A stretch of DNA of 60,825 nucleotides, filler included, from Sphacelaria rigidula (lineage: Eukaryota): the NCBI GenBank assembly GCA_964200075.2. It is 4 parts of 4 records of this genome, joined end to end, with 100 filler letters (N's around TTAATTAATTAA, not from the genome) between each part and the next. Parts side by side here need not be neighbours in the genome. Positions count along the whole stretch, not along the records: positions 1 to 15,133 come from CAXNAA020001892.1; 3 more parts are not named here. One strand, given 5' to 3'. Below are positions 1-38,400 of the stretch, one piece after another. The notes under the pieces were generated by a model. It was not told where the DNA came from. It saw only the letters and a list, made by a program, of their open reading frames with translations, and did not search any database. The translations under genes were made by a program, and so were the position numbers. Within the stretch, counting starts at the first letter, position 1, and every line of letters begins with the position of its first letter.

Positions 1-244
1 AAAACACTGTTTGCTGCCGTTGGCATCGGCGCAGGCGCTCGCGGCCACGAGAAGACACAACGAACCATACGACTTGTGAGAATGAACCGTCACGGGGGGA
101 ACCACGTGGTGCACCCGTCGTAATACCCACCGACGATCTGTCGGGAGGTTTCGGACAGAGTGCCCTCCCCCGCCGCTTTTCCGAATTGCAATTTCTCGAA
201 AATCAACAATCTTCTTGTCATTTTTGTTGACGATGTCATGTGTA

Positions 245-495
245 GACACCTGTTACGATACCCCCCCTTCAAAACCAGCCCAAAAGTGTCACGAAAAAAT
301 TGGCCATACAGCGCCTGATGTTTGAGTTCAGGCTGCATGAAGCGCCTCGTATTGGCAACATTGGCGAGAACGAACCCAAGCGTGGGAATCCCCAGCTGCT
401 CGTTGCGGTCGGCGTTTCCCATTTCGATTCACGTGAAGATTTTGCCTTCCGACACCATACACTTTTGGGGGGGGGGGGCTGTCGTAGAAAGTGTC
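245..495. mobile_element. MITE with GACAC...GTGTC terminal inverted repeats and 4-bp TSD (TGTA)
   Basis: Left GACACCTGTTACGATACCCCCC pairs with right GGGGGGCTGTCGTAGAAAGTGTC. TGTA occurs at 241-244 and 496-499. Homologous copies start at 30213 and 33891. Confidence 0.85.
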
Positions 496-1815
496 TGTAC
501 TCGACACTATGTAACATGTTTATGAAGAGACACCGACAAGAAGTAAGAGGCTGGTGAGATTCGCGAGGTTTGTGTATTTGCTTTCGCTCCTTGCCCGCTA
601 CTCCGTCCCGATGGCCTTGGATGCCGGCCACCCTCACGCGCATCAGTGCACATCAGCGCACGGTAGCAGCCTGCAGCCCTGGTAACCACTATAGTTCACG
701 CCTTGCAAATCATGCTCCATCTCAAGGTGGATACTCCAGGCCCACGACGCTCAACACAATAGGTCATCATGATAAGTCATGAGTGTGCGGTCGCCATGCC
801 AACGATCCCCGTAGAGGGTAGCTGACTGCAACCGCTAACGCGTGAGAAATCAACTAGGGGACAGGGGGAGGAATGCGCCTACCGCCCCCCTCAACGACTC
901 GAACCTTCGACCTTGGGTCCAAAAACATTTTCGTAGCAGATTCCTCTATCCACGCACATGATTCGTGGCTCAATCATACACGAGTGCCAGCCTCCTCATG
1001 TCAGGGCATGCACAACTCATCGAGCATCGTCCGTGTTGGACATGCGTTTGTAACACCACCATCAACACCTCATGCACAAGTCGTACAATCGCTCGTCAAG
1101 CTTAATGTCTTTGACAACAATTCAGCCGACGTCACAATGTAGCACATACAAACAACGTGGAACAATAGAAATGAGAAGATCGCACTCGCTGCAGTCAACA
1201 CTATACACAATGCAGTGACGTATTTAGAACGAGGGGGGCGATGCCGTCAATTCGGCGGTGCTGCGGGAATCAAATCACCACCCTTTCTCAGAACACCATG
1301 ATACACTACAAGGGTCAATGCCCGAAAAAAAGCACCAGCATGCGGACGTGATGGTCACCGCCGACCGCACCATCGCAGCCCACCCTACACCTATAAGACA
1401 TAATACAGTCACCCTCCCGACTCCTGCACACCCCTCGTCTACTGTACGACTCTTGGCCTTCGTCCAACGAAAGTCCTCCAGCGCGATTCTTCCTTCTGCT
1501 TGCAGCATACCGTGATGAGGCGAGAGTGTAAGGGCCAACAGCACACGGGGTGTTTTGTGAGTTTTCGATACTCGATGGCGGAAGATTGTCGGCAACAGTG
1601 GAGGCACGTGAATAGGAATTTTGCTGATCCGTAGCAAGGAGCACGCGAGAATCGTGGGCCGACGGCGACGTGCATCGTCTGCCGTCTTACTCATGTCATC
1701 AGCACCTGTCACCCCGTGGAAGAGTGGCCGCACACCATGCAACAAATTAAACAAAAAGTGCAACTCGCCTCCACACACCATCGAAATGCCCCATGCACAA
1801 CAGAATGAAACTTAC

Positions 1816-4800
1816 AGTCGTCGCGCTTCTCGCTGTTTTTCTTGTCTTCCTTCTTGTCCTTGCCCCTCTTGCCGCCCCTCCTCTTGCCATTCCTCCCCTT
1901 CTTGCAGCAGTCGCGCCTGTCGCAGTCACCGTTGCATGTGATGTCTCCACCGACAGACTTGAACCCCTTGGGACAGCGGTAGTCGCGGCACTTCTCATTT
2001 TCTGCCACAGCCAGAGGGAACCACAAGTACGCCCAGTGTGAGACATCAATAGCTAGTGGTGTCCCCATCGCAGCAGTTGTCGATTGCAATGTTCAAAATT
2101 GACTTTTGCGACGCCGTATGCGGCGGGTGGTTCGCTCTGACGGGGTAGCAGTTTCCTCGTGCCCTCATTCGAAGTTGATCCCGTGATTTCCTCGCAACGC
2201 CTCCGCACTGTAAACACTTCCGATGGCAGACAGCCTTCTCTGAGTTCAACGCATGGTGAAGCCAACCCCGGCGAAGCGTGATGTGAGTTCTAGAAGGGTG
2301 ACGACAGCATGAATGCCTCACTCGCTGTGCCAGTACAGCGGCACCTTGCAACAAATTTACGGCACAGACTGGTTCTCGATAGCGTTTCAGTTTGCACGTT
2401 CGACCTGCGGTTCAAACTAAGGCATGGGCCACAACTGCAGGTGTTGGCTCACCAGGATTGCCCGAGCGACGAGTCTCACAAATGCCTCGACTTCTCATCG
2501 TCAAACAGTGTATCATGGCGCTCTTGAAACAATCAGGTTGGTGCACCAACATATTCGAACATGTTTGACCACACTCCGGAGTTACACAAGCTTCGAACAT
2601 TCGCTTATTTTGAGCGCTCACCTTTTTTGCAGCATTCGCGCTGGTCGCACTTGCCGCGGCATTCCTTGTTACCGAGGCTAGAGAAGCCACGGGGGCAGGT
2701 GAAGTCGTCCTTGCACGTTTTCTTCTCTGTAAAGCAGGTGACGAGCAAGAGCGCCGTCACGCGCATCTATCTACGCCGGGTAACATTTTCAATATCGTGT
2801 GCTAGCTCGTGTTTGATTGTACCGGCAAGACCATCTTGAATTTTTTTCATGTTCGGCCTGAAGAAAATCCAAAGACGTTCACTCACGTAACCCGACTTCG
2901 ATCCGTCTCGCGATTGAACGATGTGCTTGCACTGATGTGAGGGATGTACGAGCTGCGATACCCCTCCCACATCAGCGGACGACGTCCCAATTGTGCCAGT
3001 CATATCCTTCAGCCGCCATCAAATCTACTGTAGATCGTGATCGTACGTGTGGCTTCCTCCATAAAACTCACCCTTCTCGCAACATTCGCGCTGGTCGCAC
3101 TTGCCGCGGCACTCTCTGTTACCGTGATTAAGGAAGCCGTCAGGGCACCTGAAGTCATCCTTGCACGTCTTCACCTCTGCAACGAACACGTCAACCAACG
3201 CAAGGTCTCGTCCCCACGTTCCAGCAACACTGACATGCCATGTGATACTTGCAGTGGGTGCCTCGAACTCAGTTTCATCAAGTAAGCCACAGACGTGGTA
3301 TTGTTGACGGGACTTCTGGTCATGGTTTTTTGCCTTCAACTTTTTCAAAAACAAAAGGCCGAAGAGTTCCGGCCCCAGACTTAGTTTCGCGTAGACAGAC
3401 TTCAGTCAATCTGTTGCCTGACCTGGTTGGAGAATCTACCATCGAGTAAAGATTGCGTCCCAAGAAGACTCCAGGTGCCCCACACCAGCACATTCGTCAA
3501 CTACTCGAAACAGCTCAATGCCACAACGACCGACTTGGGGGGTACGGGTTCCTCCAGTTGCCTCACCTTTCTCGCAACATTGACGCTTGTCGCACTTGCC
3601 ACGACACTCCTCGTGACCACGGTTAAGAAAGCCGCTGGGGCAGGTGAAGTCGTCCTTGCATGTCTTTTTCTCTGCAATGGGCACGGCAGCTATTGAATGA
3701 GCATCCTCACGGCTGTAGAAATGATATGTTTCCTTGACGGCAAGCGGAAAGTGGTTTGTATAAGCGGGCAGTCTAACCCGTCGTCACAGGGCGCAAGGAC
3801 CTCACCATTCACCGCCCATACCCATAAATCGAACAGCCCGCAGAGGGAGGCAAGAGGCGAAACACATACACGGAAAAGAGTACCTATACTTATCACCATT
3901 ATTCAAGACCGTAATGGTCGTCGTATTGCACTACGCCAAATATAGTGAAACATGCCGACACATCAATCTCTTGGACGGTATCCCAACCGCTGATATTGGT
4001 CCTTTCAGACACCCACCCTTCTCGCAGCATTCGCGCTGGTCGCACTTGCCGCGGCACTCCTTGTTACCGAGGTTGAGGTAGCCATGGGGGCACTTGAAGT
4101 CATCCTTGCATGTCTTTTTCTCTGCGACGGCCATTTGCATTGATAAAGCATCACCCGCGGCGAGTGAGAGTGTCGACAAGTTTTTGCTTGGTCTTGCCGA
4201 TTTGCTCATCATCTAGCGTTGAGGCCGAGTTTAATGAGAATCGTGGTTGACAGCATGGGTGTGACTGATTTGTTGGGCATGTAATGCGCGAGAGGACCGC
4301 GTGTTCAAAGGACCGCACCGCAATTCCAACACCTCTATGGTCAAGGTTGAGGTTAAGGTTGAGGTTTAGGTTGGGGTCAGGGCCGTGCTCCCTGCAGGGA
4401 CTGGCCCGAATGGTATTGAAAAGTCGATACTGAGGTATCAACCGCGGTGCGGTCCTCTCATGCATTACAACGCACATCAGTCGGCTAGATGGGTGTTGCC
4501 TCAACAGCTTGGACCCGATCGGAGACATGGGGAATTGAGGACGTGTGTACTTTCTCCAGACTTCTGCGAGATGCACACCTTTCTCGCAGCATTCGCGCTT
4601 GTCGCACTTGCCACGGCACTTCTTGTCACCGACGTTCAGGAAGCCGCTGGGGCAGGTAAAGTCGTCCTTGCACGTCTTCACCTCTGCGACAAATATGACA
4701 GCCAACGGTTGGGTGGTATCGCGCACAGGCAATATTCACGTGGAAGCCATCACTCGGTACAGGGTACCGGTGCGATCATGGTGGGGGATTTGTATACCAC

Positions 4801-7800
4801 ACTTTTTGCCACAGTTTGTGTGGCCTTCTTTTCCTCAGAATGAACATCAAGTCCCGAGGGATTAACCCATGTTGACCGTGGTGCACGCACGTCATAGAGA
4901 CGTATGTCGCACAAGGTCGGCACCCCCATATCCCCATATCGTGTCCGCTGTCACGTCAAACCCGCCTTGGTGGCACGTCCTCACTTCCGCGGGTGAGGGC
5001 AAAAATCACAGCATTTCCATTCAAAATTCCAAGTACATCTGTCGGGAGCGGAACCCGCAACTCTCCGATGTGTCGGTGTAGTTTGTGCCACCGGACTACC
5101 GGGTCCCGACGGAAAAGCACCAAAACGTTCATGTACTCTCAGGTATACGTCACGATGTTTCACTTGTACTGAGTGTACTGCGCGTATCGGGGGCCAATTC
5201 GCACAGATTTTTTCGCTCACTTCTACCAGCCGAACTCGATAGAACAGCAGTCAGGGGCGTTTATTGCGTAATTCTCTCACCCTTCTCGCAACATTCCCGC
5301 TGGTCGCAAAGACCGCGGCACTCCTTGTCTCCGCGGTTCAGGTAGCCAGGGGGGCACTTGAAGTCTTCCTTGCACGTCTCCTTCTCTGTGATGGTCAAGT
5401 GTACGATAAACGTAATGAGTTCACCACGCGCCGACCAAGTCGTCACTAATTCCACAGCCACCGGGCTTGCACCGCCTCCGTATCCAGTCTGAAAAAACGA
5501 ATGTCATGAGGTGTCGCGAGCTCCACGAAAATTCGTTTTTTCAACTCCATCTTTGAACTTCCACTGTTTACTACGGATCAAACGTCCGCGTGGATTTATG
5601 CTACTCTCAAACCCTCATCGAGTTTGGAAAGAGGAGGGGCATATCCAACACGAGGTAACCGTCTATGGTTCAATCAGTAGGACCAGATTCGACCCCTCCA
5701 ATGTCGCTCACCTTTGTAGCAACACTCGTACTTGTCACACTTCCCGCTGCATTTTTTGCGGTCGTTACCGATTGGCGTCCAGTCGCGTGGGCACGAAAAA
5801 TGCTTGCATTTTTCGCGCTGCCAAGTGGTGGGTGAGCGAAACGGTATAGAAAACGGGCAATTGGCATAAAGTCATTTGATCAGTAAGGTCCTGTGATCAC
5901 CGCAAACGTCATCATGGAAATGTCGAAGGTGAAGTCACACAATGGTGTCGAGTCATCCTCCAGACTCCTGCACTGCACCTAGGCCACGCGCGGCTGCGGT
6001 ACTCCGTGAAGCGTAGGGAGAACTTCCGACGCATGCTTGCTCAATCATGACGAAGGACAGTAGTGAGCGGGATTCACAATATACAGTAGTGCCGGTGTTC
6101 ACGGATAAAAATATTAAATGCCAAGTTCCAGTGCTTTTCAGGAAAAACGTCGATGCAAAGGTTCGTCAAACGTATATTTCGTAGGCCTCAAGATTGAAAA
6201 TTCGAGTTGTTGAGGGGGGAACATCTATCCTGCTGCCCCCTAGGTTCTTGCCGAGGCGTTAGAGGATGCGGTCAGTTGCGGTGTGCCTTGGCGTGCAGAC
6301 TGCTGAGATGACGGAGCACGGCCAGCATGATAACATTCATTGGATCGTGTTCCGTGCTGTGTGCCTTGGCCTTCCTCCACTTGCAGTCCGGGCAGATTTG
6401 GCGAGGCATGAGATGATACACACGCGGCCATTCGGTTACCTCCTTAAAATCCTCCATCACGATTTCCATCCTCTCGGGGGTAAAGTTACCTCGGGAGGAT
6501 CACAATACCCTTTATGAGGGCGTTTCATGCTCGGTTCCGGTCATAAAACGAACCCTCTGGAGGGCATCCGATGCTCAAGTGACTTCTGCGGTCTGAATTC
6601 CTCCGGAGTGCCACAAATATGGTGCTCCAGAGTACGTGGTTTTCGTGAACGTCCCTCAGAGGGAAATATGAACGGCAGAGGGAAATATGCGCATCATTCC
6701 TCTGGCGGAAGGACCGACTGTGGCCTTCAAGGCATTTGTTGCGACTCCGAAAGACACAGCCGTGCAGTATCCTCCAGATTTTACATTTACACTTGTGCAC
6801 TCGTGTCCTGATAGCTGCTTCCAGGCGATCTTCGAGACCATCACGCCAGGAAAAATACAGACATCACCCCCCGTTCACATATCGAATTCACTCGAAAAAT
6901 GCTCCACTTTGGTGTTCGAATGGTGAACACCGGACTACGGGGTTTCCACTTTTCTAAATATCATGCCTGTGTGTACATACACATTCGCAATCGGTGTATG
7001 GGATTTGAAAGCAATCGAGGCTGTCCAAGACCTCAATCCGCTTAGCCCAAGATAAAAATGGGGAGCAAGAGGATGTGTTCTCAACGACTTCCGTTGTCTC
7101 TCGACAATTTCCTCCTCGACAGACCCTTGGTCAGGGGGAGAGTTTATACAGTATTGCACCCCCTCGGTATTAGATGCCCCCCACATACATCTGTTCTTGT
7201 GCTTTGTTTCCTCGAAGTTTACAAATTTCTGTCTCCTGCGACCAATTCCAATGGACCCGGAATGATCACCCTGAAACAGCGTCCCAGAAGTGTCGTGCAG
7301 TCGTTTGCCAATGACCTACTTTTTCAAGCATGTGAAGGCTTTGGCGGCCCGTAAAGTCTCACAGCTTCTGAATTTGAAACAAGCGTACGAATCTGGCGCA
7401 TGGTCATGGGCAAGAGCAGAGCCCACCCGAAAGTACGAAAATGAGCTGCCATGAAAGTGACAGCACGACTTTTGACCTACAGTCTTTGTTGGACTGTGTG
7501 TGCTTGTTATACCATCTATTTTGAACGCTAGTTTGCGGTACCTGCCGATAGCACACAGGATCAAAGCCAACGTGGCAGTTCTTGTACCAACGACATACAG
7601 CACTTTACGCCGTTGGTCAAGTGTGAAAAAATTCGAAGTCATCAGAACGTCAGGAGGCGAAATCACACAACTAAGCCACCGAAGCAACCAACGGTTGTTG
7701 GACTGCTCAACGAAGTCAAGGCCGAATCAGCCTAACAGTCAAAATTGAGGATGGGGCTTTTCATGGAGAATGGAACCCCACCAGAACATGCAAATCCAGA

Positions 7801-10800
7801 ACCAAACCAAATCTTTGCAATATGGTTCCATGCCTCCATCTACCGGTAGCTTTTGACGACCGCTACGCGCCGTACATATATATTCGGATTTCACACCCCG
7901 AGATGCTGAGGTCACCGAAATGAAGGAACAAGTTCGGGGAATTTTGGAGACCCGATCGGATCGTCGAATTATCTCGAAACTGATTCCTTATTCAGGACCT
8001 CAGCGTTTCGGTTGTTCAAATCTTCATGTGTATGATATGGAGTACTTCTCAAGCTACCAGTAGGTTAAGAAGTGCAACAACATTTCGAAGATTTGGTGTC
8101 GATAAGAAGTTTTTCATGTTCCGGGTTCTCGTCCTCGCAAAAAGTTCATCCTCAATTTCGATGTTTGCTGTTGAGTCATGCTACAATGAGGGGGGGGCGG
8201 AATTTTCGCCGTCTTCGACGAAATTCCTCCTCGATCACTGTTGTAAGCAGCCAATAGTCGTTCGAATGCCATTTCATAAGCTCCACACCGCCTTTACCCA
8301 AATACCCAAATACAAGCGCACCGCGAGTGATTCAGGTCGTTTGAGGCATTTACGAACACATTTTTGCGTGAAATTCAACAACTCCCCCCCCCCCCCCCCC
8401 TCAGCCTACACCCCCCCCCCCCCCCCCCCCCCCCCCAGTCNNNNNNNNNNCCAAACACCAGCGCACCCGGAGTGCGTCAGGTCGTTTGGGGCATTTCCGA
8501 ACACATTTTTGCGGGAAATTCAACAACCCCCCCCCCCCCCATTGCAGCACACACGCGGCCATTCGGCCAACCCCCGAAGAGTCCGTTCCGGTCAACGTTT
8601 TGATTTCAACGCCTTTTGAAGGTGCGCTAGCCTCCAGAGGGGTGGGATCGAACGCCTCCAGAGGCTTATTTTGCCTCTGCAGGGCCGCGCACCCTCTGGA
8701 GGAACTTGGAGGATGCGCATCTCTCCAGATCATGTGTGCTACTCTCGGGGGATTCAGACCTCACTGGAGCATCATATTTCCACCAGATGATTCGACACCA
8801 TCCTCCGGGTCATTTCACCCTCGAGAGGATGAATCGCGATGAAGGATGTTCATGGGGGTAGTCGACTAGCCACGTGTGTGTGGCTTTCGTTATCAACTGC
8901 ATGACCATCAGTTTGAAAAAGCAACCGAGCGGGGGCTCCATCCTCCTCGAGCGACACAAGTTCGTGTATGCTAGACCTGATATCATTGCTTTTTGTTCGC
9001 TGTCTCCCCTCATCATGTGTTTCTGCCTGGGGAGGCGCCACTGATTGAATTTGGTGCGGACTATTTCCCCCCAGTTTCGGACTCCTCCCATTTTCCCCTC
9101 ACGATTTTGCCACCAACACATGAATCAGAATACTGTTTGTTTTCGCCAATCCGTATGGTTTACCGGGGCAACATGGGCTGGGAGCATGCACACGGTGTCG
9201 TGGGCAACGTGTACGCAAAAGCTCACATTGGTACCCTAGGCGCCGGTTCGAGCTCACAAACCCGTCCTGCACACGCTCGAGAACACCGAGGACCATCAAT
9301 CCCCAAAATATCCGAAAGTGAAGCAGAAATAGCAGAATTCTCATACAGGCTAGACTTTTGATCAATTTCAAGAGGGATCACAGATATCTCCACAGCTGTG
9401 GCCCTGAAATTTATTTTCGGCACTCAGTGCAGCACTGCAAAATCGGAATTCGGTAGAAATACCAAAAAAGACCTCGTCGACAACACTCGGAGAAATCTTT
9501 TCCACGTTTTTGTGAGGCCAGACCTCATCACGGATCGAAAAACGCGATTGTAAGGCTCTAGTGCAATGAACACGTCAAAATGACCACAGACTGTCGTTGT
9601 TCAACCTAAAACGATTGAAATTGATGTGATCGAGTAAAAATGCCGAAGAGTCACAACCTGGGAATAAGGTCACGGGACTCTACTTCACCGATACGCTCGT
9701 GAGCCGCCCGTCATTGATTGCCGGTGAGATTTTTGTTCAATGTGTGGCGATTACAAAAATCTCCTCACCATAAAACTTGGGATCAAACGTTCCCTGTGAT
9801 GATGCTATCGAAAACTGGGAAAACTACTCGTACGAAGATTACGAAATCGCTTAGCACAACAGGTCAGGACTATTACATCACATCAAAAATATCTGTGAAC
9901 TCATTTTCACATTCACCACTTAGACAGCCCAAGCCGCCATGACGAAACGCATTCTCGCATCGTTTGCGGATTGGAGTATGATTGTGGGTGAGAATTATAC
10001 TGCACGGTACCTTGCGGCCACGAGAGCCTAGGCGGCGATGCGTAAATGCCGGGTCAAATTCCTCCCCATTGGTGATGCCATGCTCCCCGCCTGAAAGCAC
10101 GAGGGGGCGAGAGGACACGAGAAATAAAGACGGCCAGAAGTTGGGTAGACGGATGATCGAACGAGCGTGAAACGCGGTGGGGATGAGGCACTCGATGAAG
10201 CCTTTCCAACAGACACATGATGCATCGCTTTATCATTAGCATGTTCCACTGTATTCGAGTAGTGTTCGCTTTCCCCCCCAAGGTGTGCTGACTGTGTGGT
10301 CTGATCCCATAAAACCCTGGCGCCAAATAAGTCTGTGTCTGTTGTATCCTTCGTGTGGGACACATACCCCGTTTTTTCACGTAAAAATATCCAAGATTTT
10401 CGGCATCGCCAGGTGAGGCGGGGTCTCATGAGAAGTGGTTACCACCTTCCAAGAAATCACTTTTGTGATGAGCGATCGATGACTGATTGCTGAGATACCC
10501 CCCCCCAGAGAAGAGCAAAATTTGATTTGTACAAAAGTGATTTCAGGGCGTGGAAAAAAAACTTCCTCAAATCACGTGTGTACAAATTATTTTTGGGACC
10601 CTTCGAAGGGTAACATAAAAACATCTCCTTGACAGGGGCCTAACCGAGGTCAAGACAGACACCTCGACACGATCATACGTGAACCGGAGGATCGTATTAC
10701 CCTCCTAAACAATATGCACCACTCCATTCATTGCTGCTCATCGGCTGAGCACGCTGTGCGTGACCTTGCTCAGATCGGTTCAGAATTCAGTGAAAAATGA

Positions 10801-11362
10801 TTGCGTGAGACGCGCGCACAGCACACGCTTAAAAACAGTCAGCAACAACAGCACGTTTTCGGTTGCTACCTGACCCGCACACGGCCACCTTTTCATCCAC
10901 TACTGGATGGCTTTCCGTCGAACATGGGCTGTCGAGCGTAGATGATCAGGGTGTCTCATTTCGAGATTCCCGGTGTTTTTCATAGTAGTACAGCCAGCTC
11001 AGACTTAATTCCGCGTATCCTTGACTGGAGGTGTTTGACTGTACGCTACTGTGAAACATGGTGGGAATCTTGAGTTTGAGATGCCTTGAGTGAGGAAAGT
11101 CATTCATTGTGCAGCTCAGTAGCGAAACGCACAAGAATGATGGATGACAACAGCTAGCGAGGAGGTTCCGTTCGTACTAGCCCACGTGGAGTATCGTAAT
11201 TACTCGTGGAGAGACTCGTATACATGTTAAGCGGTCACTACCGCTCAGAATAAATCCCGCTCGACACTATTCGCACTACCAACCTTCCGGTCCAACAGCA
11301 ACGGCGGGTGGCGATGCCAGCATCAGCAGAAAAAAAGTCGCTGCCTCCCCTATGATCTTCAT
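1816..11362 (-). CDS. Spliced gene for a predicted secreted protein with 8 tandem 6-cysteine modules (one per exon) and a Lys/Arg-rich tail; terminal exon not resolved
   Basis: Phase-compatible GT-AG exons on the minus strand: 11362-11284 (MKIIGEAATFFLLMLASPPAVAVGPE, signal-peptide-like, ends phase 1); 10090-10011 (GGEHGITNGEEFDPAFTHRRLGSRGRK, phase 1->0); 5817-5712 (REKCKHFSCPRDWTPIGNDRKKCSGKCDKYECCYK, 0->1); 5385-5281, 4683-4579, 4121-4017, 3671-3567, 3176-3072, 2726-2622 (105 bp each, 1->1); 2001-1816 (ENEKCRDYRCPKGFKSVGGDITCNGDCDRRDCCKKGRNGKRRGGKRGKDKKEDKKNSEKRDD, ends at GTAAGT). Repeat exons are certain; linking the two 5' exons is inferred from phase and content. Confidence 0.75.
2622..5385 (-). 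repeat. Array of six near-identical 105-bp symmetric (phase 1-1) exons encoding E-x-K-T-C-K-D-D-F-x-C-P-x-G-F/Y-L-N-x-G-x-K-E-C-R-G-K-C-D-x-R-E-C-C-E-K
   Basis: Each copy is bounded by CAG and GTG splice sites and is exactly 105 bp. Spacing is about 450-700 bp, and the intervening introns show no similarity by eye. Confidence 0.92.
4280..4469. mobile_element. Short TIR element (TGTAATGC...GCATTACA) with internal degenerate telomere-like hexamers, inside an intron of the Cys-repeat gene
   Basis: TGTAATGCGCGAGAGGACCGC pairs with GCGGTCCTCTCATGCATTACA. The interior contains GGTTGAGGTTAAGGTTGAGGTTTAGG. A second copy lies at about 25097-25292. Confidence 0.75.
6419..7110. mobile_element. Truncated copy of CACAC-terminal DNA transposon family (opposite orientation to 20981-23268)
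   Basis: Starts CACACGCGGCCATTCGG. 6419-6900 aligns with the reverse complement of 22330-23268 (minus an insertion), and 6900-7110 with the reverse complement of about 21420-21700. The right boundary is approximate. Confidence 0.75.
8550..8878. mobile_element. 329-bp non-autonomous derivative of the CACAC-terminal family
   Basis: TIRs CACACGCGGCCATTCGG / TCGACTAGCCACGTGTG. Subterminal sequences resemble the two ends of 20981-23268. Confidence 0.7.
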
Positions 11363-12389
11363 TATCGCCCTTGCTCTCGAGGAGTAGCACTGTTGTAGCA
11401 AGTAGGAGGGGTATAACCTCTGTGGTACACTGGGCTGCGAGGAGAATCAATAGTCTAATGGAAAGAGAGGATGGGTTGTCGTGTGAGAGGGATGGGTGCG
11501 GTACAAGACTGAGGCAGACCTGACCTGAAATAACTCAGCCGGCACAGTGCGGAAATATACATCTTGCATGTCTCTCCGCTTCTTCCCACATGTACATGTC
11601 GAGGTATATTAGTGTATAGTTTAGTGCAGGTCTGATACCCGCACTGGGGCATGCAGGGGCAATAGCAAAAGATATCGTTCATGTGCACATATTCTTTGGG
11701 GTCGAAAAGCGAGGCGTCTGAAAATTTTGTTGGTCGTATATTGGTTGATGTTTTGGAACAAACTAACGATCATGCTGACCCTAACCCTAACCCCGACCCA
11801 AGGGGTACGAGGACCTCTGGCAACGGGGGTACATACGCTTTCCTAAACAGGTGGGCACTGGGGTGCCTGCAATCTCACATTTGGACTTTACAGACGTTGC
11901 ACAGGGTCCGTAACATCCAAATTTGAACCAAATTTGAGGTTACAGGCACCCCAGTGGCCACCCGTGCAGGTATAGTGTGCGTTGGCAGACCTGAACTCGA
12001 CGCCGCAGTTTTGGACGAGCTGGGTCCTCTGCTGTCCTGCCCCAAACCATAAATTTCCTCAGAACTTCTTCAAGTCTAAAATGATGCAAGTAGTCATGAT
12101 GCCAACCATACATATACGACCAAAGTTTTATTAGGTGTACTGGACACTCGGTATCAGCAACGGTGCTGGTCTGTGGGGCTGCCCTTTTTCTGCGAATGTT
12201 CAGTGGAAGGGGTTTTGGCGTGGTACGTTTCGGGGTAACCCCACGGTGCTGAACAACTTTTGCACATGATATACGCGCGGACATTCGTCTTGAAACAGTG
12301 GTATTCCTTTTCGATCATATGGAGGCGGTATTTTGGCAGCTTGGGCGTGAAGAGCATCCGCACCCCGTGTCAGATTACGCCGTAACTCA

Positions 12390-13620
12390 GAAGATGTATA
12401 GATTGGTATTTGAGGAAGGTGCCACTGTCACAGCTACAGCAGGGGAAGTCGGTGATGGCCCGGTCTACATTCATAATCATTAGGTACGCAATCACGTATT
12501 TCAACACCCTGCTGTCTGATGACGATTATAATGGGTACAGTCACAGTTGAGACGCTGACTCTGCAATGGATCCCGCTGTCCTCGCATCAGCCTTTGTCCG
12601 GTCAGGGATGAACGCTCGAAGAAAGCATCAAACGAGCATCGTTTATGATCCGCTATATATATGAGGGTTGGTAGGTGAATGTTTCCGCTCCTGTCGCACG
12701 ACCAGTGGGTTGCGCAACGAACCCTTGTCGGCGTACCTGGTACTGGAGGCGACATCCCGGTACAGACAGTTCCACCACTACCGACCCGGCCGTGCAAACA
12801 GGCTGGCAGCCGGAGTGGGCGTTGCACTGGTATTCTTCTAGCCATATCAACGTGAATCATCTCCGCAACGGCTTTGTACGTGAATATTCCAAAGATTTCC
12901 TCATTTCCACTTCGGCCATAGTTTGACGACAACGCCACGGTCCCACTCCCCAACTTTATATGTGAAAATGTACAACGATGGACGAGATATTCATGTTCAG
13001 GTTAAAGAAAAGTGTACTGCGCACAGTACTGAAATCTGTTGTCGAGTACAGCTGCATGACGGTCGGGTTACGAAAATCTGGACCTGCGACGGGTGGTACT
13101 ACCCGTACACATGAACGGCAGCAAAAGTGGCTGGGTACATGCTGTGGTGAACTGCGGAAGACAGGTGGAACTCACTGCAGGGCAGAGATATGCGAAGGAT
13201 GTTACGTTCTGCAGTGTGCCATATCACCTTGCACGTTGCTGCTGTGCATCGAGCACGTTGTGCAGCTACAGGCGTCACTGATGCGGGTGGTGCGCATCCT
13301 CCAATGCAGGCGGCCCGCAGTATATGACATGCTGTACTGACTGTACAACTTGTGTTCAGACCAGTGCAAACGGGGTGGGGCCCGCATGCACATGACCCTT
13401 CATGAACTTCGTCGTGCACTACCGAGCCGGCACGTCTTTCCAGTAGAAATCGCTTGCAATATAGGCTGTTACATAACTCGTAAGCGATGCAGCTTTCTTC
13501 ACGTCCGCACACCGCACGTGAGGCGAGCTCTCTATGGTGGAAGTGCCCGCCCCTCTTCCCGTGATCTCCTGCCTTGGTCTCAGACAACTGAAACCTTCGG
13601 AACATGACAGTAACTACTGG
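12390..13620 (-). pseudogene. Degenerate coding-like repeat, possibly a MULE-type transposase relic; inverted homologue at 18805-20108
   Basis: Clear inverted homology to 18805-20108. The minus strand gives the SWIM-like fragment FPCCSCDSGTFLKYQSIH and TSTIESSPH, with many stops and frameshifts. Family assignment is tentative. Confidence 0.4.
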
Positions 13621-13803
13621 AAGTTACACATGTCGCCCCCTACCGCCTCCATATTACCGAAAAAGAATAACACTTGAAATGGATAATGAACTAGGCAGTA
13701 TTTAATAATGCTGTTGACAACGACAAATAACCGCGAATCCTAGAAAATGGGGTTGATACAAATATGGGGTTAAAGTGTTACAAACAGGATAGTGTTGTTC
13801 ATA

Positions 13804-14684
13804 CGAGCTGGGCCAGCCTAGAGGCGGATTTGAAGTTTGCAGGCCCATGCTCTTTCATACATTTAGAGTTGGGCTCTGAAATTTGGGCCCTGAAATTTGG
13901 TATGGACAATGCATTGGGCATTAAAAAAAAATTACTTCGGTACCAAAATATTTTTTTTCTTTATGAGTTAGGGGTATTTTACTGATACCTGAAAACCGAT
14001 TATTGCCCTCAACTCATGAAAAAAAAAAACTTTTGGTACCGAGGTAATTTTTTTTTCATGCCCTATGCACTTTCCATACCAAATTTCAGGGTCCAACTCT
14101 GAAGGTGTAAAAAAGCATGGGCCTATCAAAAACCGGGTCGGTAGAAATTCGGAACAGTATTTCGCAGGCCACTCACCGGCCCAGGTTTGGTTTTCGTGTA
14201 TTGAAATTTGGTATGGGCGCTCTCTAAGGCATATTCAACAAAAAAGAGTGGGTCAGGTTGATTTTTTTCATTTTTTTTTCACTGGTTTAGGGCGTTCTAC
14301 TATGGTGAGACCATTTTTTCACGAAAACGCCCTAACCTCTATTGAAATAAAATAAAATAAAATAAAGGCCCATTTTTTTTTTTTATTCGGCACTCTTTTG
14401 TGGTTCTCCACACCAAAATTCGTCGCCATCCGCTAAATGCATCGATCGGGAGTTTCATAGAGATTCTAGTATTGGCAAGGTATTGTCGCTATCTCCCTCA
14501 GGTATAGGAATTTCTAGACATTGGATTTAATCAACGAGAAAATATGGGCCCAAAATTTTGAGCAGATGGGCACCTTCCCCTTGATTGGACAATTAATACG
14601 ATATGCGGATCACGGCCCAACTCGTCTGCGTCGATGAGATTTTGCTTTTAGAGCTTGGATCCGTTTTTAGGCTGGCCCAGCTCG
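13804..14684. mobile_element. Tc1/mariner-type non-autonomous element (TA TSD, TIR CGAGCTGGGCCAGCC) with internal ~235-bp hairpin
   Basis: TA|CGAGCTGGGCCAGCCTA ... TAGGCTGGCCCAGCTCG|TA. Internal inverted arms span about 13865-14100. Confidence 0.85.
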
Positions 14685-17600
14685 TATTTTTCGGAGTTGG
14701 ATCCATTTCATTGAATTTCCAGAAGGACGGATCTTCTCTCATGACCGCCATGGACAACACATGAAAAATCTCCGGATCATGGCTTTTACATCATCGTTTC
14801 GCACCTTTCACCCGAGTTGCAGGCCCAACAGGCTGGGCCGCCCAAGACGCGGACAGGGATGTGAACACGCGATTTTACAGCTGAGTTTCAGGTTGTTTTC
14901 TATGAAATTTTGACACAATGTACAGGGCGTATGTGCCAAGACGCCACCTTTTCCCTCGTATACATATTTTTTGTGAAGTTATTCACGATTCTGTTCCGAA
15001 AAACACTGTTCCGAAATGTTTGGTCGCCGATAACTCACGGAGAAAAAACGAAAAATGTAGAGGGGAAAAAGTGGCGTCTTCGCTCTTACATCATGTACAT
15101 CGTGTCAAAAAATCATAAAAAAACGACCTGCAANNNNNNNNNNNNNNNNNNNNNNNNNNNNNNNNNNNNNNNNNNNNTTAATTAATTAANNNNNNNNNNN
15201 NNNNNNNNNNNNNNNNNNNNNNNNNNNNNNNNNTCACACCATGCTCAACAGTGGAGAGCGACTATGTCGTGGGTACACAAGGTTCGACTTAACGGTTGAC
15301 GAGGGAAAGGGACTGCTGGACCCCTCTCGCGATAAAAAATAGAGGCAAGCACCGCAGGAGGAAGGTGGGATATTGGAAAAAAAGAAAAAATCTCCGGGGT
15401 TGACCCTCCTCCTGTGTGACCCCGGCTGATGCGCCGACATGTACCGAAAGGTGTAGACTGGTGCCCAGAATAGAGGGGACGAAAACACAACACATACAGA
15501 CTTACCCAAGAAAAACAAAACTGAAACACTGACTGAAGAAAATAAGGAACAGAAAAAAAAAAGAGTCGAACAGAACGACATCGTAGACTGAGACGTAATA
15601 AAAAATAATAATAATAAAAAGAAAACAAAAGCGAAGCACAGATATAAATGACCGACCTAAAACAAAAAAAAGGAAAAGAAGAGGAAGGTGAAGAGCAATT
15701 AAAATAGAATAAAATAATAAGATGGAAAAAAGGAAAAAACCCAAGGGATTCAGGGCGGCAGAGTAGATACAGATACACATCAGTGGGCACCGCAGAGCCA
15801 CCGACTAAGGACGTAATCAACAACCGATATGAGCAGACAGAACATTGACAGCTCCCTATTTTAGTCGGTTCTAATTTGCAGCCGAGGGGTGGAGTAGGTC
15901 CGTGCGTACATTGTGTGTAGAACGAACGCCATGTGGCTATGATAGGAGCACACGGGGACAAACACATGCCATCTACATATGTGTAAATAAACACAGGGCT
16001 CAGCAGTATCTTGTCTGATCGAACGCTCTCTTACAATGCCGACAGTTGACAGTACGCAAACCTATTCGAAGCATTAGCTCTATGAAAAAAAAAAAACGCG
16101 GGCGTTTAACACCGCTTCTCGAAGCATTAGACCTACTCAGTATAGGGGCCGGGTCGCCTCTGAACGAAGAATAATGACCTATACACAAAAGAAATGTTCT
16201 CTTTCTGGACACAACCATACCTTCTATACGCCCACCTGCTGTACCCCGAAAAAACAACCACGATCCGAATACTGTACTATTTCGGCGTTGTTAGGTGTAT
16301 AGGGAGAGCAACCCCCCCCCCCCCAGGAAACACACGATGCAGTACCACCCAACACCCATATGATACGCCATAAGCGGTGACTGCGCCCTGTGGTACGCTT
16401 CTGAGAGTGGAATCATATCGAGTGAGAAAGTCGAAGAGGGGGTTAGCGGTTCAAGGCTTCGAGGAAATATCCTGAACCGTTCCGATTGCAACACTGATAC
16501 GATAATCTCACCACCTTCTCCCTTCGAGGACACGTTTCTCTCGCTTTCTTTCAAGTCGAAGATCGACGCTCTGGGAGAATCAACTGAGCGTTTTCGAAGG
16601 CCAATGATCAGTCATTCCATAATGGTTTCATGGCTTGCATCCTATATATTGAACACATGATCCGACAACCGGGCCACACAGCCAAGTACTCATGTATGCT
16701 TTTTAGAGCAATGTCTAGGGAACGGCGTACCTTGTCGTTTTCGGCCACCTTCGGGTTCGGTGGTCAGCGAGTATTTTTCGCGGCGTAAGGAAGACGCGAA
16801 CTTGGCGCACTGGATGGCACTAGTGTATAATGCTGACTGCTGTAGTAGTGTACTGCTCTGCCATAGTAGTGTACTGTTCACTGCTACACTGTCTGTGCGC
16901 TGGACTGTTTGGTGTGTGAGGTTGTGGCGGGAGCTGCCGTCTGATGTGAAACATGACACATGTTTTTTTTTCATCAGTTTAACATTGACATAAAATGGTT
17001 TACATACAGAACAATGCCCGATATCAGACCCGCAACAGAGTAAATAAAAAAAATCGCGGGCACATACGCCACGACACCACAAGCCACACCACATGGAGCA
17101 CCTGTGGGCAGCTACTAGCTGCTGGGCAGGGGGTGCACAATCCTGTTGGAGTACTATGTGTGCCAAGTTGTGTGTCAAACTTAGCTTCTATGCCTTTGTT
17201 ATTCTGAAATCTCGAAAACATATGCTTTCCAAAAAATGCATAAGGTTATGCGCAAAACCCTTTTTGAAGCCGAATCGCATGCGTGCATAAGAAACTGAAG
17301 ACTAAACTTGGCCCGACTTGGGTTGTGTTGGTGGAGGGCACGCAGTGCAGCTTCCGTTCTATTAATTTGCTGAAGGGCAAACTTGAAAAAAAGAAAAAGC
17401 AGGCTGATACCTGCCATAGGTGAAAATTTTGCGGCCCGTCAACCAGAGCTGTCTTGTACCCTCACGTGGCCTAAAGCGATAAGGTATCCGCCACTACTTC
17501 TCTCTGGCGTCAGGGCATTAGAGCCACAATTTGCTACTTCGGGCAACATGTGCACCCATGTTTTCGCCACTTTCATGCTCGTTGGTGGATGGGAAGAGGG

Positions 17601-35437: not shown

Positions 35438-38400
35438 TCAGTCAACCTTGATAGCGCTGTAGATCTTGCGAACGAACCTGACAAAAGAAGAGCACAGGAC
35501 GAAAAGTTCCAGCATAATGTCGCCAGCGATTCTGTCTTTTCTAGCATACTTCGGGGAAGCTACAGAGATTTATCCGGTGACGGGCAGAAGGCAGCAAGCC
35601 AAGCAACGGTACGGAAGACATGCTTTCATCGCTACCAAGCACAAAGTAGATGCAATAAGTGCGTGGAAGCTGCACAGGAGAGGGCAGGTGTCTGGTTCGT
35701 CGCGTGTCCCTCGAAGCTCGACTCTTTGATACACTAATGATGCGCAACGCACAAATTGTTTCACGAAAATACGTAACAGAAAAGCAGACGACCGATCAGC
35801 TGGTACTCGTGATCATCACCACGAGTTTGTACAAAATAGCAAAAGGAAGGACATGGTTAGACAAAACTACGTATATAATCTTGCACGACAGTACGTTCTA
35901 CATCAACTTGCGGTAACGGTAACAGTAACGGTACCACGACCCTTGCCACGTACAAACACCGCAACAGTGACACAAGTTGGACGCCACAACGTCGACTAAT
36001 GCCTCAACACATGATTGACAGCGAGAACTTACCAGAAGCACGCGAAGAATCCACAGCTGCCCGTAAGCAAGAAGAACGTGAGAGCGATCACCAGCATATA
36101 GCCGAAGTACACCATGGTAGGGACGAAGCCGGTTATAGGGAGTTTGGAGTAGAAGAACCAAATGGAGTACACGAAGAGGTACCCCGCACTCGACCCCGCA
36201 GACAAGAACGCGCGCCACCACCTGTACAACAGAGTTATCACATGTAGCACATGTAGCACATGTAGCAGAGGTGGGCATTCCCGTGACAAACGTTTGACTG
36301 ATGAGTTTCATTCTCCGCAAACTTGATTTGCGCGTCATGTCGAAAATTTCACTTGGGCGTTCAACTCGTCGTGATTCGACACGCACGAAAGTCGTCAAAG
36401 TCATGTACAAGGCGCACGTTCTACCCTCAGCGTGCCTGCTATGTGATAGATGCTGACACAGAGGAATGCGCATCATTGCGTACCGATGAGCGGGTGGGAA
36501 GCCTTGAATCGTACGTTCGAGCTCAGCTACTCCACCTTTCCCCGGAGCAAGTTCCACTCCAGTTCGAATGCCAATGATGAAACAAAAGTTCAACGTCGAC
36601 GACTATTGGTTGTTTCAATGGTTTCGTCGGGGAAGGCACGAGATCATGAGCTGGCGAAAAAAAAAAAAGACGATGGGCTACGGGAGCGCTGATGCCTTCG
36701 AACGTACGGACTCTTCTTGAGGAAGGGAGGGGAGGGGGATGAAAATATGACGAAAGCAGAGTAAAAATATCGACACTTTCATGTCAACCGACACAACGAA
36801 CCACAGTGCTTCAGCCTTCCAACAGCTTTTGCCTCCGGACACACAAGAAACGCAGTGCCACCATAGGGACAATCTGTCGCTGCTTGCCACACAAGCCCAA
36901 ACATTTCCATCCGTTGCGCGCATAGCATAGCACTCACCAGCGGTAGTCCTCATTACACAGCTGGAAGTAGCACATTACCATGGTAATTTCCGCGCAAGTG
37001 GCGATCAGGATGAAGAAAACCACGTACAAGAACGAAAATACGTAGTAGATCTACCGACGCGCGGGGGAAGGAAACCGAACACACGCGAGAAGGATAAAAA
37101 GACGGATCAAAACATCGTCACGGTGAACGCATTGCTTGTGCGGGTGGATCTCTAACCAATCTTCAAGCCGGAAATTGCTGAGATACGACGAAGATATCAC
37201 TGGTATCAACTATCGGAAACGCCCAGGCAGTTGAACATGAACACAAAATCCCCCAATGCAACACATGGGAAAGTGAGACAAACCTGATGCATCCAGAGGG
37301 CGCTCATGATGAAGAACAGCTCAATACACACCGCCCCGAACGGCAGGATCCCTCCAAGAGCAATTGCAAAAGCAGGGTGCGTGTACCACATCTGCTCCGG
37401 CACATGCCTGGTACGTCCATACATGCAAATGAACACATTTGGTGAGCACAGGCAGCGCCATCACGCCGACACAGCAGTCCCAGTCCCTGGTGCTGGGGGA
37501 CAAAAAACAACAGACACGTGCTAGCTGGGGACGACAATGATATCCTTCAATTCCAATAACCCCTAGCGTCACACGCAACAGAGGCGTCAGCATCATGTGA
37601 GGACTCGTGGCAAACCATCATTCACGAACTGACCAAATGCCCGCGACGACAAAAATGAGGCCCCCTAGGCATTTATTACTGCGTGTATACAAGGGTTACA
37701 TCAACAGCTCATCACCCCGTGACAACAGACTTCAACGCTCAAAGTCAGCGTGCGCACGCGAGGGGATCACCGCACAGACAGTACAAAACGCCGAGAGCCC
37801 AGCTGCTATACCAGACAGCCCCCCCCCCTCGCAGCCGCAAGTACCACACACGCACCTCGCGATTTGGTTCACCCTTACGGGGATAGTGTAAGTTTCAGCA
37901 CGGAAGCCGAAGTAACTTCCCACGAACACCAGCGGCATGCTTACGAAGAACCACAGGAAGAGCAGCAGCGCGAACATCGGCACGCTTATCGCCGTCGAGG
38001 CCTCTCGAGTCCACACCTGAAAACAAGCAGCACGATCAAGAGCAACATCAGTATCCCCGCACGTGGTCGTGTCACACCCAGCGTGGTGGATTAACTTTTC
38101 GTAGTGACCCCCAGTCGTGTCACGCCAGCACGACTGGCGACTTCACATCATCATCCGGCACGTGAAATAGACAGATCCTACAAGGAGCGACTGTTTGAAT
38201 ACTGTTTGAGGCGGACAAGCCGCCGGGGAACGCCGCTAACAGCGTTTGCAAGGGTGACTGGCGACCCACCAGCACATCGAGAGCCCAGTAGATGGCGAAC
38301 ACTATGGAAGGGAACAGCAGGGCCGTGACGAGCGTGCTGCGCTTCCACTTCTTGCCGTTAAAGAACTTGTAAACGGTCGCAGACCAGTAACCGGCGAACG

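Follow-up and report, generated by a model that had tools for sequence, protein, structure and literature searches.

A one-module-per-exon array encoding a six-cysteine module in Sphacelaria rigidula, a candidate wall or matrix protein of brown algae

Animal extracellular mosaic proteins carry their modules on exons of phase 1-1, EGF-like repeats being one example. Independently of plants and animals, brown algae arrived at complex multicellularity and at a polyanionic cell wall, and the known proteins of that wall or matrix are few. Within the brown algae, a one-repeat-per-exon design is described for the ROCO-LRR and NB-ARC-TPR genes, for which the accessible text of two papers reports rapid shuffling and alternative splicing (PMC3341825, PMC11378527). 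Another short cysteine motif described from this lineage is EsV-1-7, which the available part of one study regards as a zinc finger (10.1101/2024.02.19.579948) and which is the sole cysteine motif mentioned in the accessible parts of two other sources (10.64898/2026.04.27.720984, PMC12629598). A further point of comparison is the STMC6 (Shisa-like) group, given in the accessible text of its description as single-pass proteins with six conserved cysteines, one cysteine domain, a transmembrane helix, and a proline-rich tail with PY motifs (PMC6125347). Here we describe a minus-strand gene of the brown alga Sphacelaria rigidula (assembly GCA_964200075.2), found in a 60,825-base stretch of DNA that we refer to as the window, in which eight copies of a six-cysteine module are encoded one to an exon. 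The module is undescribed in the parts of the literature on brown algal or Sphacelaria cysteine-rich or one-repeat-per-exon genes that were accessible, supplementary tables lying outside this scope. It defines a new family of cysteine-rich modules, and the principle behind it, tandem duplication of a symmetric 1-1 exon, is a known one.

The eight modules lie on the minus strand between 1816 and 5817 and have the form C-x4/5-CP-x10/12-C-x3-C-x4-CC. When the regular expression (regex) C-x3-6-CP-x8-14-C-x3-C-x4-CC was applied to all six frames of the window it gave eight matches, all on the minus strand and all within 1904 to 5808 (cores at 5719-5808, 5288-5374, 4586-4672, 4024-4110, 3574-3660, 3079-3165, 2629-2715, and 1904-1990), and 0 matches summed over 100 shuffled windows. 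A hidden Markov model (HMM) of the eight modules recovered the same eight alone from the six-frame translation, with expect values (E) from 1e-14 to 2e-20, the best nonmodule match standing at E 0.32. Eleven columns are invariant in the eight-row alignment, among them the six cysteines, the proline after the second cysteine, two glycines, and an aspartate; in a 24-row alignment all six cysteines and the proline retain this invariance. An earlier sequence-only reading of this DNA had claimed the eight-module, six-cysteine pattern, and both searches bear it out.

Spliced contigs support most of the exon boundaries. Four runs were compared as assembled contigs: X4 is a DNA-like metagenome run that differs by about 1%, and X11 is labelled as coming from a second organism. 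The RNA nature of runs X5, X6, X8, X9, X10, and X11 is guessed, none of them being recorded as RNA. The gene model, with each joint written as the two positions that it brings together, is as follows.

5712 to 5817, minus strand: cap-module exon, 106 nt, phase 0 to 1, reading R-E-K-C...CC-Y-K; found by the regex, with its donor set by joint 5385>5712 in X5 and X11.
5281 to 5385, minus strand: central module exon 2, 105 nt, phase 1/1; found by the regex, with upstream joint 5385>5712.
4579 to 4683, minus strand: central module exon 3, 105 nt, phase 1/1; joint 4121>4579 in two X5 contigs and in X11 (side 79).
4017 to 4121, minus strand: central module exon 4, 105 nt, phase 1/1; joints 4121>4579 and 3671>4017.
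3567 to 3671, minus strand: central module exon 5, 105 nt, phase 1/1; joint 3671>4017.
3072 to 3176, minus strand: central module exon 6, 105 nt, phase 1/1; joint 2726>3072.
2622 to 2726, minus strand: central module exon 7, 105 nt, phase 1/1; joints 2726>3072 and 2001>2622.
1816 to 2001, minus strand: terminal-module exon, its module followed by a Lys/Arg-rich tail (...KKGRNGKRRGGKRGKDKKEDKKNSEKRDD), its final base the T of the stop codon; joints 2001>2622 and 1495>1816.
1496 to 1815, minus strand: last intron, 320 nt, GT..AG, splitting the stop codon as T|AA; joint 1495>1816 in X5 (side 112) and X11 (side 32).
418 to 1495, minus strand: last exon, holding the AA of the stop codon and the 3' untranslated region (UTR), its lower end approximate; from X5 contigs.

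All six X5 joints (2001>2622, 2726>3072, 3671>4017, 4121>4579, 5385>5712, and 1495>1816) are exact, GT..AG, and on the minus strand, and three of them recur in X11 with sides of 32 to 79 letters. X4 holds none of the six; its contigs cross the introns at 468-1927, 2017-2656, 3151-3658, 4045-4605, and 4674-5951, and because they run through without joints, the joined form is confined to the runs guessed to be RNA. Of the seven introns predicted between module exons (326 to 620 nt), spliced contigs bridge at least five, and among the matches listed (15 of 84) there is no joint across introns 2 or 5. X5 contigs leave 5818-7900 and most of intron 2 blank, a gap in cover that has no bearing on the place of the first exon or on the splicing of intron 2, and contig depth figures give no basis for ranking expression. 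The gene is spliced and lies on the minus strand, and we read it as a transcribed nuclear gene.

The six central exons all have the acceptor ..cag|AG and the donor G|gtg.., hence phase 1 on both flanks, and their length is a multiple of 3, so that they form a symmetric (1-1) array. The sequence-only reading had proposed exactly such 105-bp exons, bracketed by a distinct cap module (phase 0 to 1) and a distinct terminal module, and GT..AG boundaries and the gene model agree with it on both points. It had also called the exons similar and the introns unrelated, which stands: central exon identity is 75 to 86% (mean, 81%), and among eight introns (28 pairs) no similarity exceeded that of shuffles (highest z, 3.1). 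The equal spacing of 450, 495, and 450 hinted at a duplicated two-exon unit, which we rejected; introns 4 and 6, though equal in length at 345 nt, are dissimilar (z, -0.9). Where the earlier account went astray was the end of the gene, which it had placed at 1816, since the 320-nt intron and the last exon, from 1495 to about 418, lie beyond that point. The spliced reading frame stops at nt 922 to 924, nt 922 being the final base of the terminal-module exon; the last intron is thus in phase 1, the protein terminates in ..NSEKRDD, and the last exon, about 1.08 kb long, is all 3' UTR save the two bases of the stop codon. X5 contigs over this exon cover 1325-1495 (joined to 1816-1927) and 418-1290, with 0 differing letters. 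Were the last intron (1494-1816) retained, the frame would extend by about 35 codons, to 1709.

At the other end, the cap exon is the most upstream exon placed, and its acceptor, ..ggcag|CGC, was read from the sequence alone; a cap-like open reading frame (ORF) from another assembly (P0029) has its module begin at the same residue. Two candidates for a 5' exon were considered, and neither was adopted: one at 9344, which is weak, lies past an assembly gap, and has an h-region with His and Arg, and one at 7452, also weak. The gap, 10 N's at about 8441-8450, lies in a stretch (8380-8530) where long poly-G runs and two near-identical copies of a sequence of about 60 nt surround it. Because it falls between the gene and the best upstream-exon candidate, the gene's 5' portion may be absent or wrongly assembled.

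The exon copies are old and under purifying selection. Across the six central exons, the Nei-Gojobori method gave a mean proportion of synonymous differences (pS) of 0.52, a synonymous divergence (dS) of about 0.98, a nonsynonymous divergence (dN) of 0.14, and dN/dS of 0.16. With copies of this age the introns are expected to be unalignable and no special mechanism is needed, and the high similarity of the exons follows from purifying selection with a contribution from codon bias (G+C at third codon positions [GC3], 0.78, against an intron G+C of 0.51), and is no evidence that shuffling or conversion took place recently.

From the cap exon to the stop codon the gene encodes 307 residues with the following composition: 48 Cys (15.6%), 85 Lys plus Arg (28%), and 62 Asp plus Glu, with an isoelectric point of 8.8, zero Ala, zero Met, and little Val (1.3%), Ile (0.7%), Leu (2.6%), Thr (3.6%), or Pro (3.3%, all inside modules); this part holds no hydrophobic stretch. 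Between the last Cys of one module and the first of the next stand six charged residues (CC-EKE[KV]KT-C), and a Lys/Arg-rich tail of 29 residues comes after the terminal module. The six invariant cysteines most likely form three intramodule disulfides, to judge from their even number, the lack of metal-site spacing, and the invariant proline, glycine, and aromatic positions. An AlphaFold2 model of one module, made with the 24-row alignment, has a mean predicted local distance difference test score (pLDDT) of 82 and contains a pair of short helices together with short strands; a three-module model of the relative P0002 (mean pLDDT, 55.9) was left out of structure searches.

We compared the module profile with 1.84 billion representative proteins, obtaining 47 matches at E of 1e-3 or below and 15 at 1e-10 or below, and read the sequences of 24 of the 47. 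The top two, P0001 (CAM9170217.1; E, 1.7e-28) and P0002 (CAN0019027.1; E, 2.1e-25), are from S. rigidula, and a further 13 short ORFs followed at E from 1.4e-14 to 2.3e-4, comprising 11 single-module ORFs (P0005-P0015; 1.4e-14 to 2.3e-11), the cap-like P0029 (2.7e-6), and the terminal-like P0040 (2.3e-4); together these make up the close family in this search. The close members numbered 17 in a second search, of which ENA assemblies supplied 14, NCBI 2, and Logan 1. Just two close relatives are named, both as "unnamed protein product, partial [Sphacelaria rigidula]," which agrees with a brown algal source of the gene. Repeat proteins that are long and Sushi-like or of CP-x-G-Y type (P0003, P0004, P0016, and others) cover only about positions 8 to 23 of the profile and were set aside as not being relatives.

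The close relatives have the same module, with cap-like (..CDKYECCYK) and terminal-like (CC-basic tail-DD) variants and the CCEK|EK.. junction. P0001 reads ...CCEK|EKETC..., which is the predicted junction of exons 1 and 2, the other junctions reading EKEKKT or EKEVKT. P0002, a partial predicted model, runs from the end of a cap-like module through one central and one terminal-like module to a basic tail ending ..DD, and P0040 reads on as ..KRDD-C-E-S, which fits a GT donor positioned as in the terminal exon here. In other assemblies, 13 of 14 genomic ORFs of central type read on as CCE[KR]-G, as they would where the frame runs on through an identically placed GT donor. A design in which each exon holds a single module and its GT donor comes straight after ..CCE[KR]-G thus seems to extend to these relatives. 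They differ from the window gene in that none is identical to any of its modules, all are partial or single-exon ORFs with no functional annotation, and P0002 has three modules rather than eight and continues past ..DD (YHY) where the window gene has its split stop. Among longer relatives (206 to 2,000 residues) we found one unrelated match carrying PF00754, which is weak evidence against existing full-length models; gene finders seem to overlook these genes. Searches for related loci confirmed 0 of 63 pattern matches in a metagenome profile scan and 0 of 6 in a viral contig scan, and a metagenome DNA-pattern scan gave 0 matches.

More distant matches point to where the module may reside. P0020, P0032, P0027, and P0044 match nearly the whole profile (P0020 at E 5.3e-8 and P0032 at E 1.8e-5, with matches over profile positions 3 to 32), and a search from the distant members found 27 proteins (JGI, MERC, Logan), none functionally named and one a "hypothetical protein." Aligning the module alignment with that of the distant family in hhalign gave a probability of 94.3% and E of 1.1e-7 over 33 columns. 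Inspection of the distant sequences (P0020, P0032, P0052-P0055) revealed a hydrophobic N terminus, three to five modules with TTVTTTPAP-like, Thr-rich linkers between them, a transmembrane stretch, and a conserved tail, ..FLSDDGPVE; no Pfam family matched these proteins above its curated cutoff. They appear to be single-pass membrane proteins of marine protists with the module outside the cell and the tail in the cytoplasm. They share with the window gene a homologous module, C-x4-CP-x-G-[WFY]..C-x3/4-C-x4-CC, and differ in the Thr-rich linkers, the transmembrane segment, and the tail, a combination that the 307-residue part does not show and in place of which it has six-residue charged linkers and a basic tail. 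Since the distant homologues hold the module between an apparent signal peptide and a transmembrane segment, they indirectly suggest, as the sole evidence on this point, that the window protein is extracellular. The extracellular location proposed by the sequence-only reading thus has only indirect support, from the placement of the module in these homologues; no signal-peptide exon was found in the window.

Searches for a known family gave no match above threshold, which bears out the earlier statement that the domain is unnamed and is not EsV-1-7. For the eight modules at E up to 10, Pfam returned Shisa_N alone, in three of eight modules and below threshold (best E, 0.027), with no zinc-finger, metallothionein, EsV-1-7, or EGF match. 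P0001 scored 14.2 bits against Shisa_N (PF13908), for which the cutoff is 22 bits; neither P0001 nor P0002 matched EsV-1-7 at E up to 1; and the distant protist proteins had no match to Shisa_N at E up to 1 and matched cEGF at just E 0.09 to 0.7. A sequence search of the PDB gave no significant match, the best being shisa-3 (5m0w) at E 0.19. The single-module model returned 0 rows from Foldseek against the PDB at E up to 10, a blank that at 34 residues does not show a new fold, and 0 hits with Z of 2 or more from VIA-align against 48,161 chains and 0 matches in BFVD, both uninformative at that size. In the ESM Atlas the best scores were 0.77, for P0002 and P0053, with structural rows at TM scores of 0.40 or below, which are leads only.

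We think it somewhat probable that the gene encodes a secreted, net-cationic rod of eight modules that binds or cross-links anionic wall polysaccharides, its array having arisen by old tandem exon duplication. The product would be a bead-string protein of at least 307 residues with eight closely spaced modules of about 35 residues. Its array expanded through old tandem duplication of a single 105-nt exon, copies of which can be added with the frame intact because the exon is in phase 1 at both ends, and purifying selection then held the copies alike as the introns drifted past recognition. A 5' exon not yet placed would take the protein into the secretory pathway. Outside the cell it may then form a rigid rod, strongly charged and net cationic and ending in a Lys/Arg-rich tail, that binds or cross-links the anionic polysaccharides of the brown algal wall, a role that we infer from its composition, short linkers, and basic tail.

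Several points weigh against this reading. Binding to wall polysaccharides is drawn from charge and composition alone, and no fold or family match supplies a functional precedent. In the known 307 residues there is neither a transmembrane segment nor an N-glycosylation (N-x-S/T) site, and the pairing of cysteines is not readable from the module model. A search of the minus strand over 5818-16000 for an ATG, a hydrophobic stretch, and a phase-0 GT donor did not find a start-codon or signal-peptide exon, and because the 5' exon is not located, secretion leans on distant homology alone, with the distant-family profile built from four sequences. The support for splicing comes from contigs of runs guessed to be RNA, which are uninformative on expression level, strand, and transcript ends.

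Plants and animals are known to possess multicopy precursors of cysteine-rich defense peptides, and it is possible in principle, if unlikely, that the array is such a polyprotein, secreted and then cut between modules into many small disulfide-rich peptides that are antimicrobial or that inhibit the enzymes of grazers or pathogens. Small cationic, cysteine-rich modules of near-equal length joined by short charged linkers (CC-EKE[KV]KT-C) would suit a precursor of this kind, as would the strong codon bias (GC3, 0.78) and the many module transcripts. The linkers of about six residues, however, contain no conserved dibasic or other recognizable cleavage motif, the distinct cap and terminal modules and the long basic tail suggest a rod that stays intact, and the Pfam and PDB searches gave no match to an inhibitor or defensin family.

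The sequence-only reading had proposed an active exon-cassette system, in which the symmetric exons are skipped, repeated, or recombined to yield many isoforms that vary in module number and order and serve in recognition, adhesion, or defense; we regard this as quite unlikely. Since all six central exons are 105 nt long and in phase 1/1, any subset of them would stay in frame, and X5 includes joints 2726>3567 (one exon skipped; depth, 1,230) and 2726>4579 (three skipped; depth, 423) beside the canonical 2726>3072 (depth, 266). A total of 3,821 X5 contigs fall on a 7.9-kb stretch, 841 of them fitting two places, and many module variants would thus be transcribed. Yet the sides of the skip joints are only 20 to 28 nt long (24 to 28 nt for 2726>3567 and 2726>4579) against the 30 to 31 letters required, and the first and last 28 letters of the central exons differ at just 1 to 7 positions. 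Exons 4 and 6, and likewise 4 and 7, share exact runs of 32 to 33 nt, longer than the word of the contig assembly, which we take to be about 31, so that contigs can switch between exons. A skip-like X11 contig differs at 13 of 105 letters and so belongs to a paralogue, and at position 1933 most of the X5 depth carries another letter, which means that close paralogues are transcribed. With these observations in view, we do not read the skip-like joints as evidence of exon skipping. Neither is the array recently reshuffled, given dS of about 1 and unalignable introns, and the X4 DNA contigs, about 1% different, are colinear with it across introns 7, 5, 3, 2, and 1; as originally stated, then, an active cassette system is not supported. 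Variation in module number fares somewhat better, in that family members apparently differ (three modules in P0002 against eight here), with the qualification that P0002 is a partial, predicted model. A broader version, in which combinatorial use of 105-nt exons within genes joins with gain and loss among transcribed paralogues to produce a repertoire of secreted rods, strikes us as equally doubtful. If true, it would mean a recognition or adhesion repertoire outside the cell, on an undescribed cysteine module, beside the intracellular LRR and TPR receptors with exon shuffling that have been proposed in brown algae. The gene looks like that of an old, stable repeat protein, with exon swapping unproven.

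It is very unlikely that the protein is instead an intracellular, cysteine-rich basic protein with no signal peptide, its cysteines binding zinc or another thiophilic metal or the whole acting in the nucleus on nucleic acids, since the points that favor this (no signal-peptide exon in the scan of 5818-16000, 28% Lys plus Arg, a tail resembling a nuclear localization signal, and the putative zinc finger of the other brown algal cysteine motif, EsV-1-7, according to the accessible part of 10.1101/2024.02.19.579948) meet a module without the CxxC or Cys/His pairs usual in zinc sites, with an even six cysteines and invariant Pro, Gly, and aromatic positions that fit a disulfide knot, with a protist relative lying between an apparent signal peptide and a transmembrane segment, and with no Pfam zinc-finger, metallothionein, or EsV-1-7 match at E up to 10.

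Other features of the window are of lesser concern here. One lies inside the gene.

4280 to 4469, no strand assigned: small terminal-inverted-repeat element in intron 3, with 21-nt arms at 4280-4300 and 4449-4469 that are 90% complementary.

The center of this element, at about 4340-4385, has degenerate GGTTNA hexamers of telomere-like appearance, and the summed X4 depth in its bin is very high; it is probably a multicopy passenger resembling a miniature inverted-repeat transposable element and no part of the protein. Stretches 6260-7130 and 265-528 are probably repeated elements, with summed X4 contig depths of thousands to hundreds of thousands against about 25 to 35 nearby. A poly-C/poly-A run lies at 480-495, and the motif GAATGGCCGCGTGTGT, present near 6430, recurs near 8560. 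On the minus strand at 38120-38962, an intron-interrupted open frame matches Endomembrane protein 70 (PF02990; E, 2.5e-38) and is an ordinary neighbor gene of TM9SF type. Over the G+C-rich stretch 50427-51473, each strand holds a long open frame (348 and 324 codons) that would translate to low-complexity sequence rich in Ala, Ser, Pro, and Gly. No Rfam family matched positions 1-10000.

The interest of the locus lies chiefly in its being a candidate brown algal wall or matrix protein and in a gene family that annotation has missed. By these searches the module is in neither Pfam nor solved structures, and its named carriers are two partial models among 1.84 billion representatives. Gene finders appear to overlook genes of this sort, and brown algal proteomes may undercount such families as a result. 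The link to marine protists offers a handle on a wider, uncharacterized, and probably extracellular family.

Set beside known systems, the module resembles Shisa_N most in sequence, aligning over 27 columns (F-x-CP-x10-C-x-G-x-C-x2-R-x-CC) with five cysteines in register, and Shisa_N is likewise a small cysteine domain that is luminal or extracellular in Shisa. Shisa proteins differ by having one more cysteine (CC in place of the C-R of the window gene) and only one domain, to which a transmembrane helix and a proline-rich tail are added. We therefore rejected membership of Shisa_N/STMC6, for which the gathering score was missed, for a protein that has eight modules in tandem, lacks a transmembrane segment in its known part, and contains 3.3% Pro. 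The ROCO-LRR and NB-ARC-TPR genes, as far as the accessible text on them goes, come from the same lineage and share a repeat-per-exon design that lets the number of repeats change by exon duplication or shuffling; their units are the LRRs and TPRs of intracellular candidate receptors, whereas those here are cysteine modules and old duplicates (dS of about 1). In exon design the gene is like the animal mosaic proteins, which also have symmetric phase 1/1 exons, one small disulfide-rich module on each, in tandem arrays, and it differs from them in a fold family that is unrelated as far as tested, in lineage, and in having no other module types mixed into it. The device of the animal matrix, one disulfide module to each symmetric 1-1 exon in tandem, arose in the brown algal lineage too.

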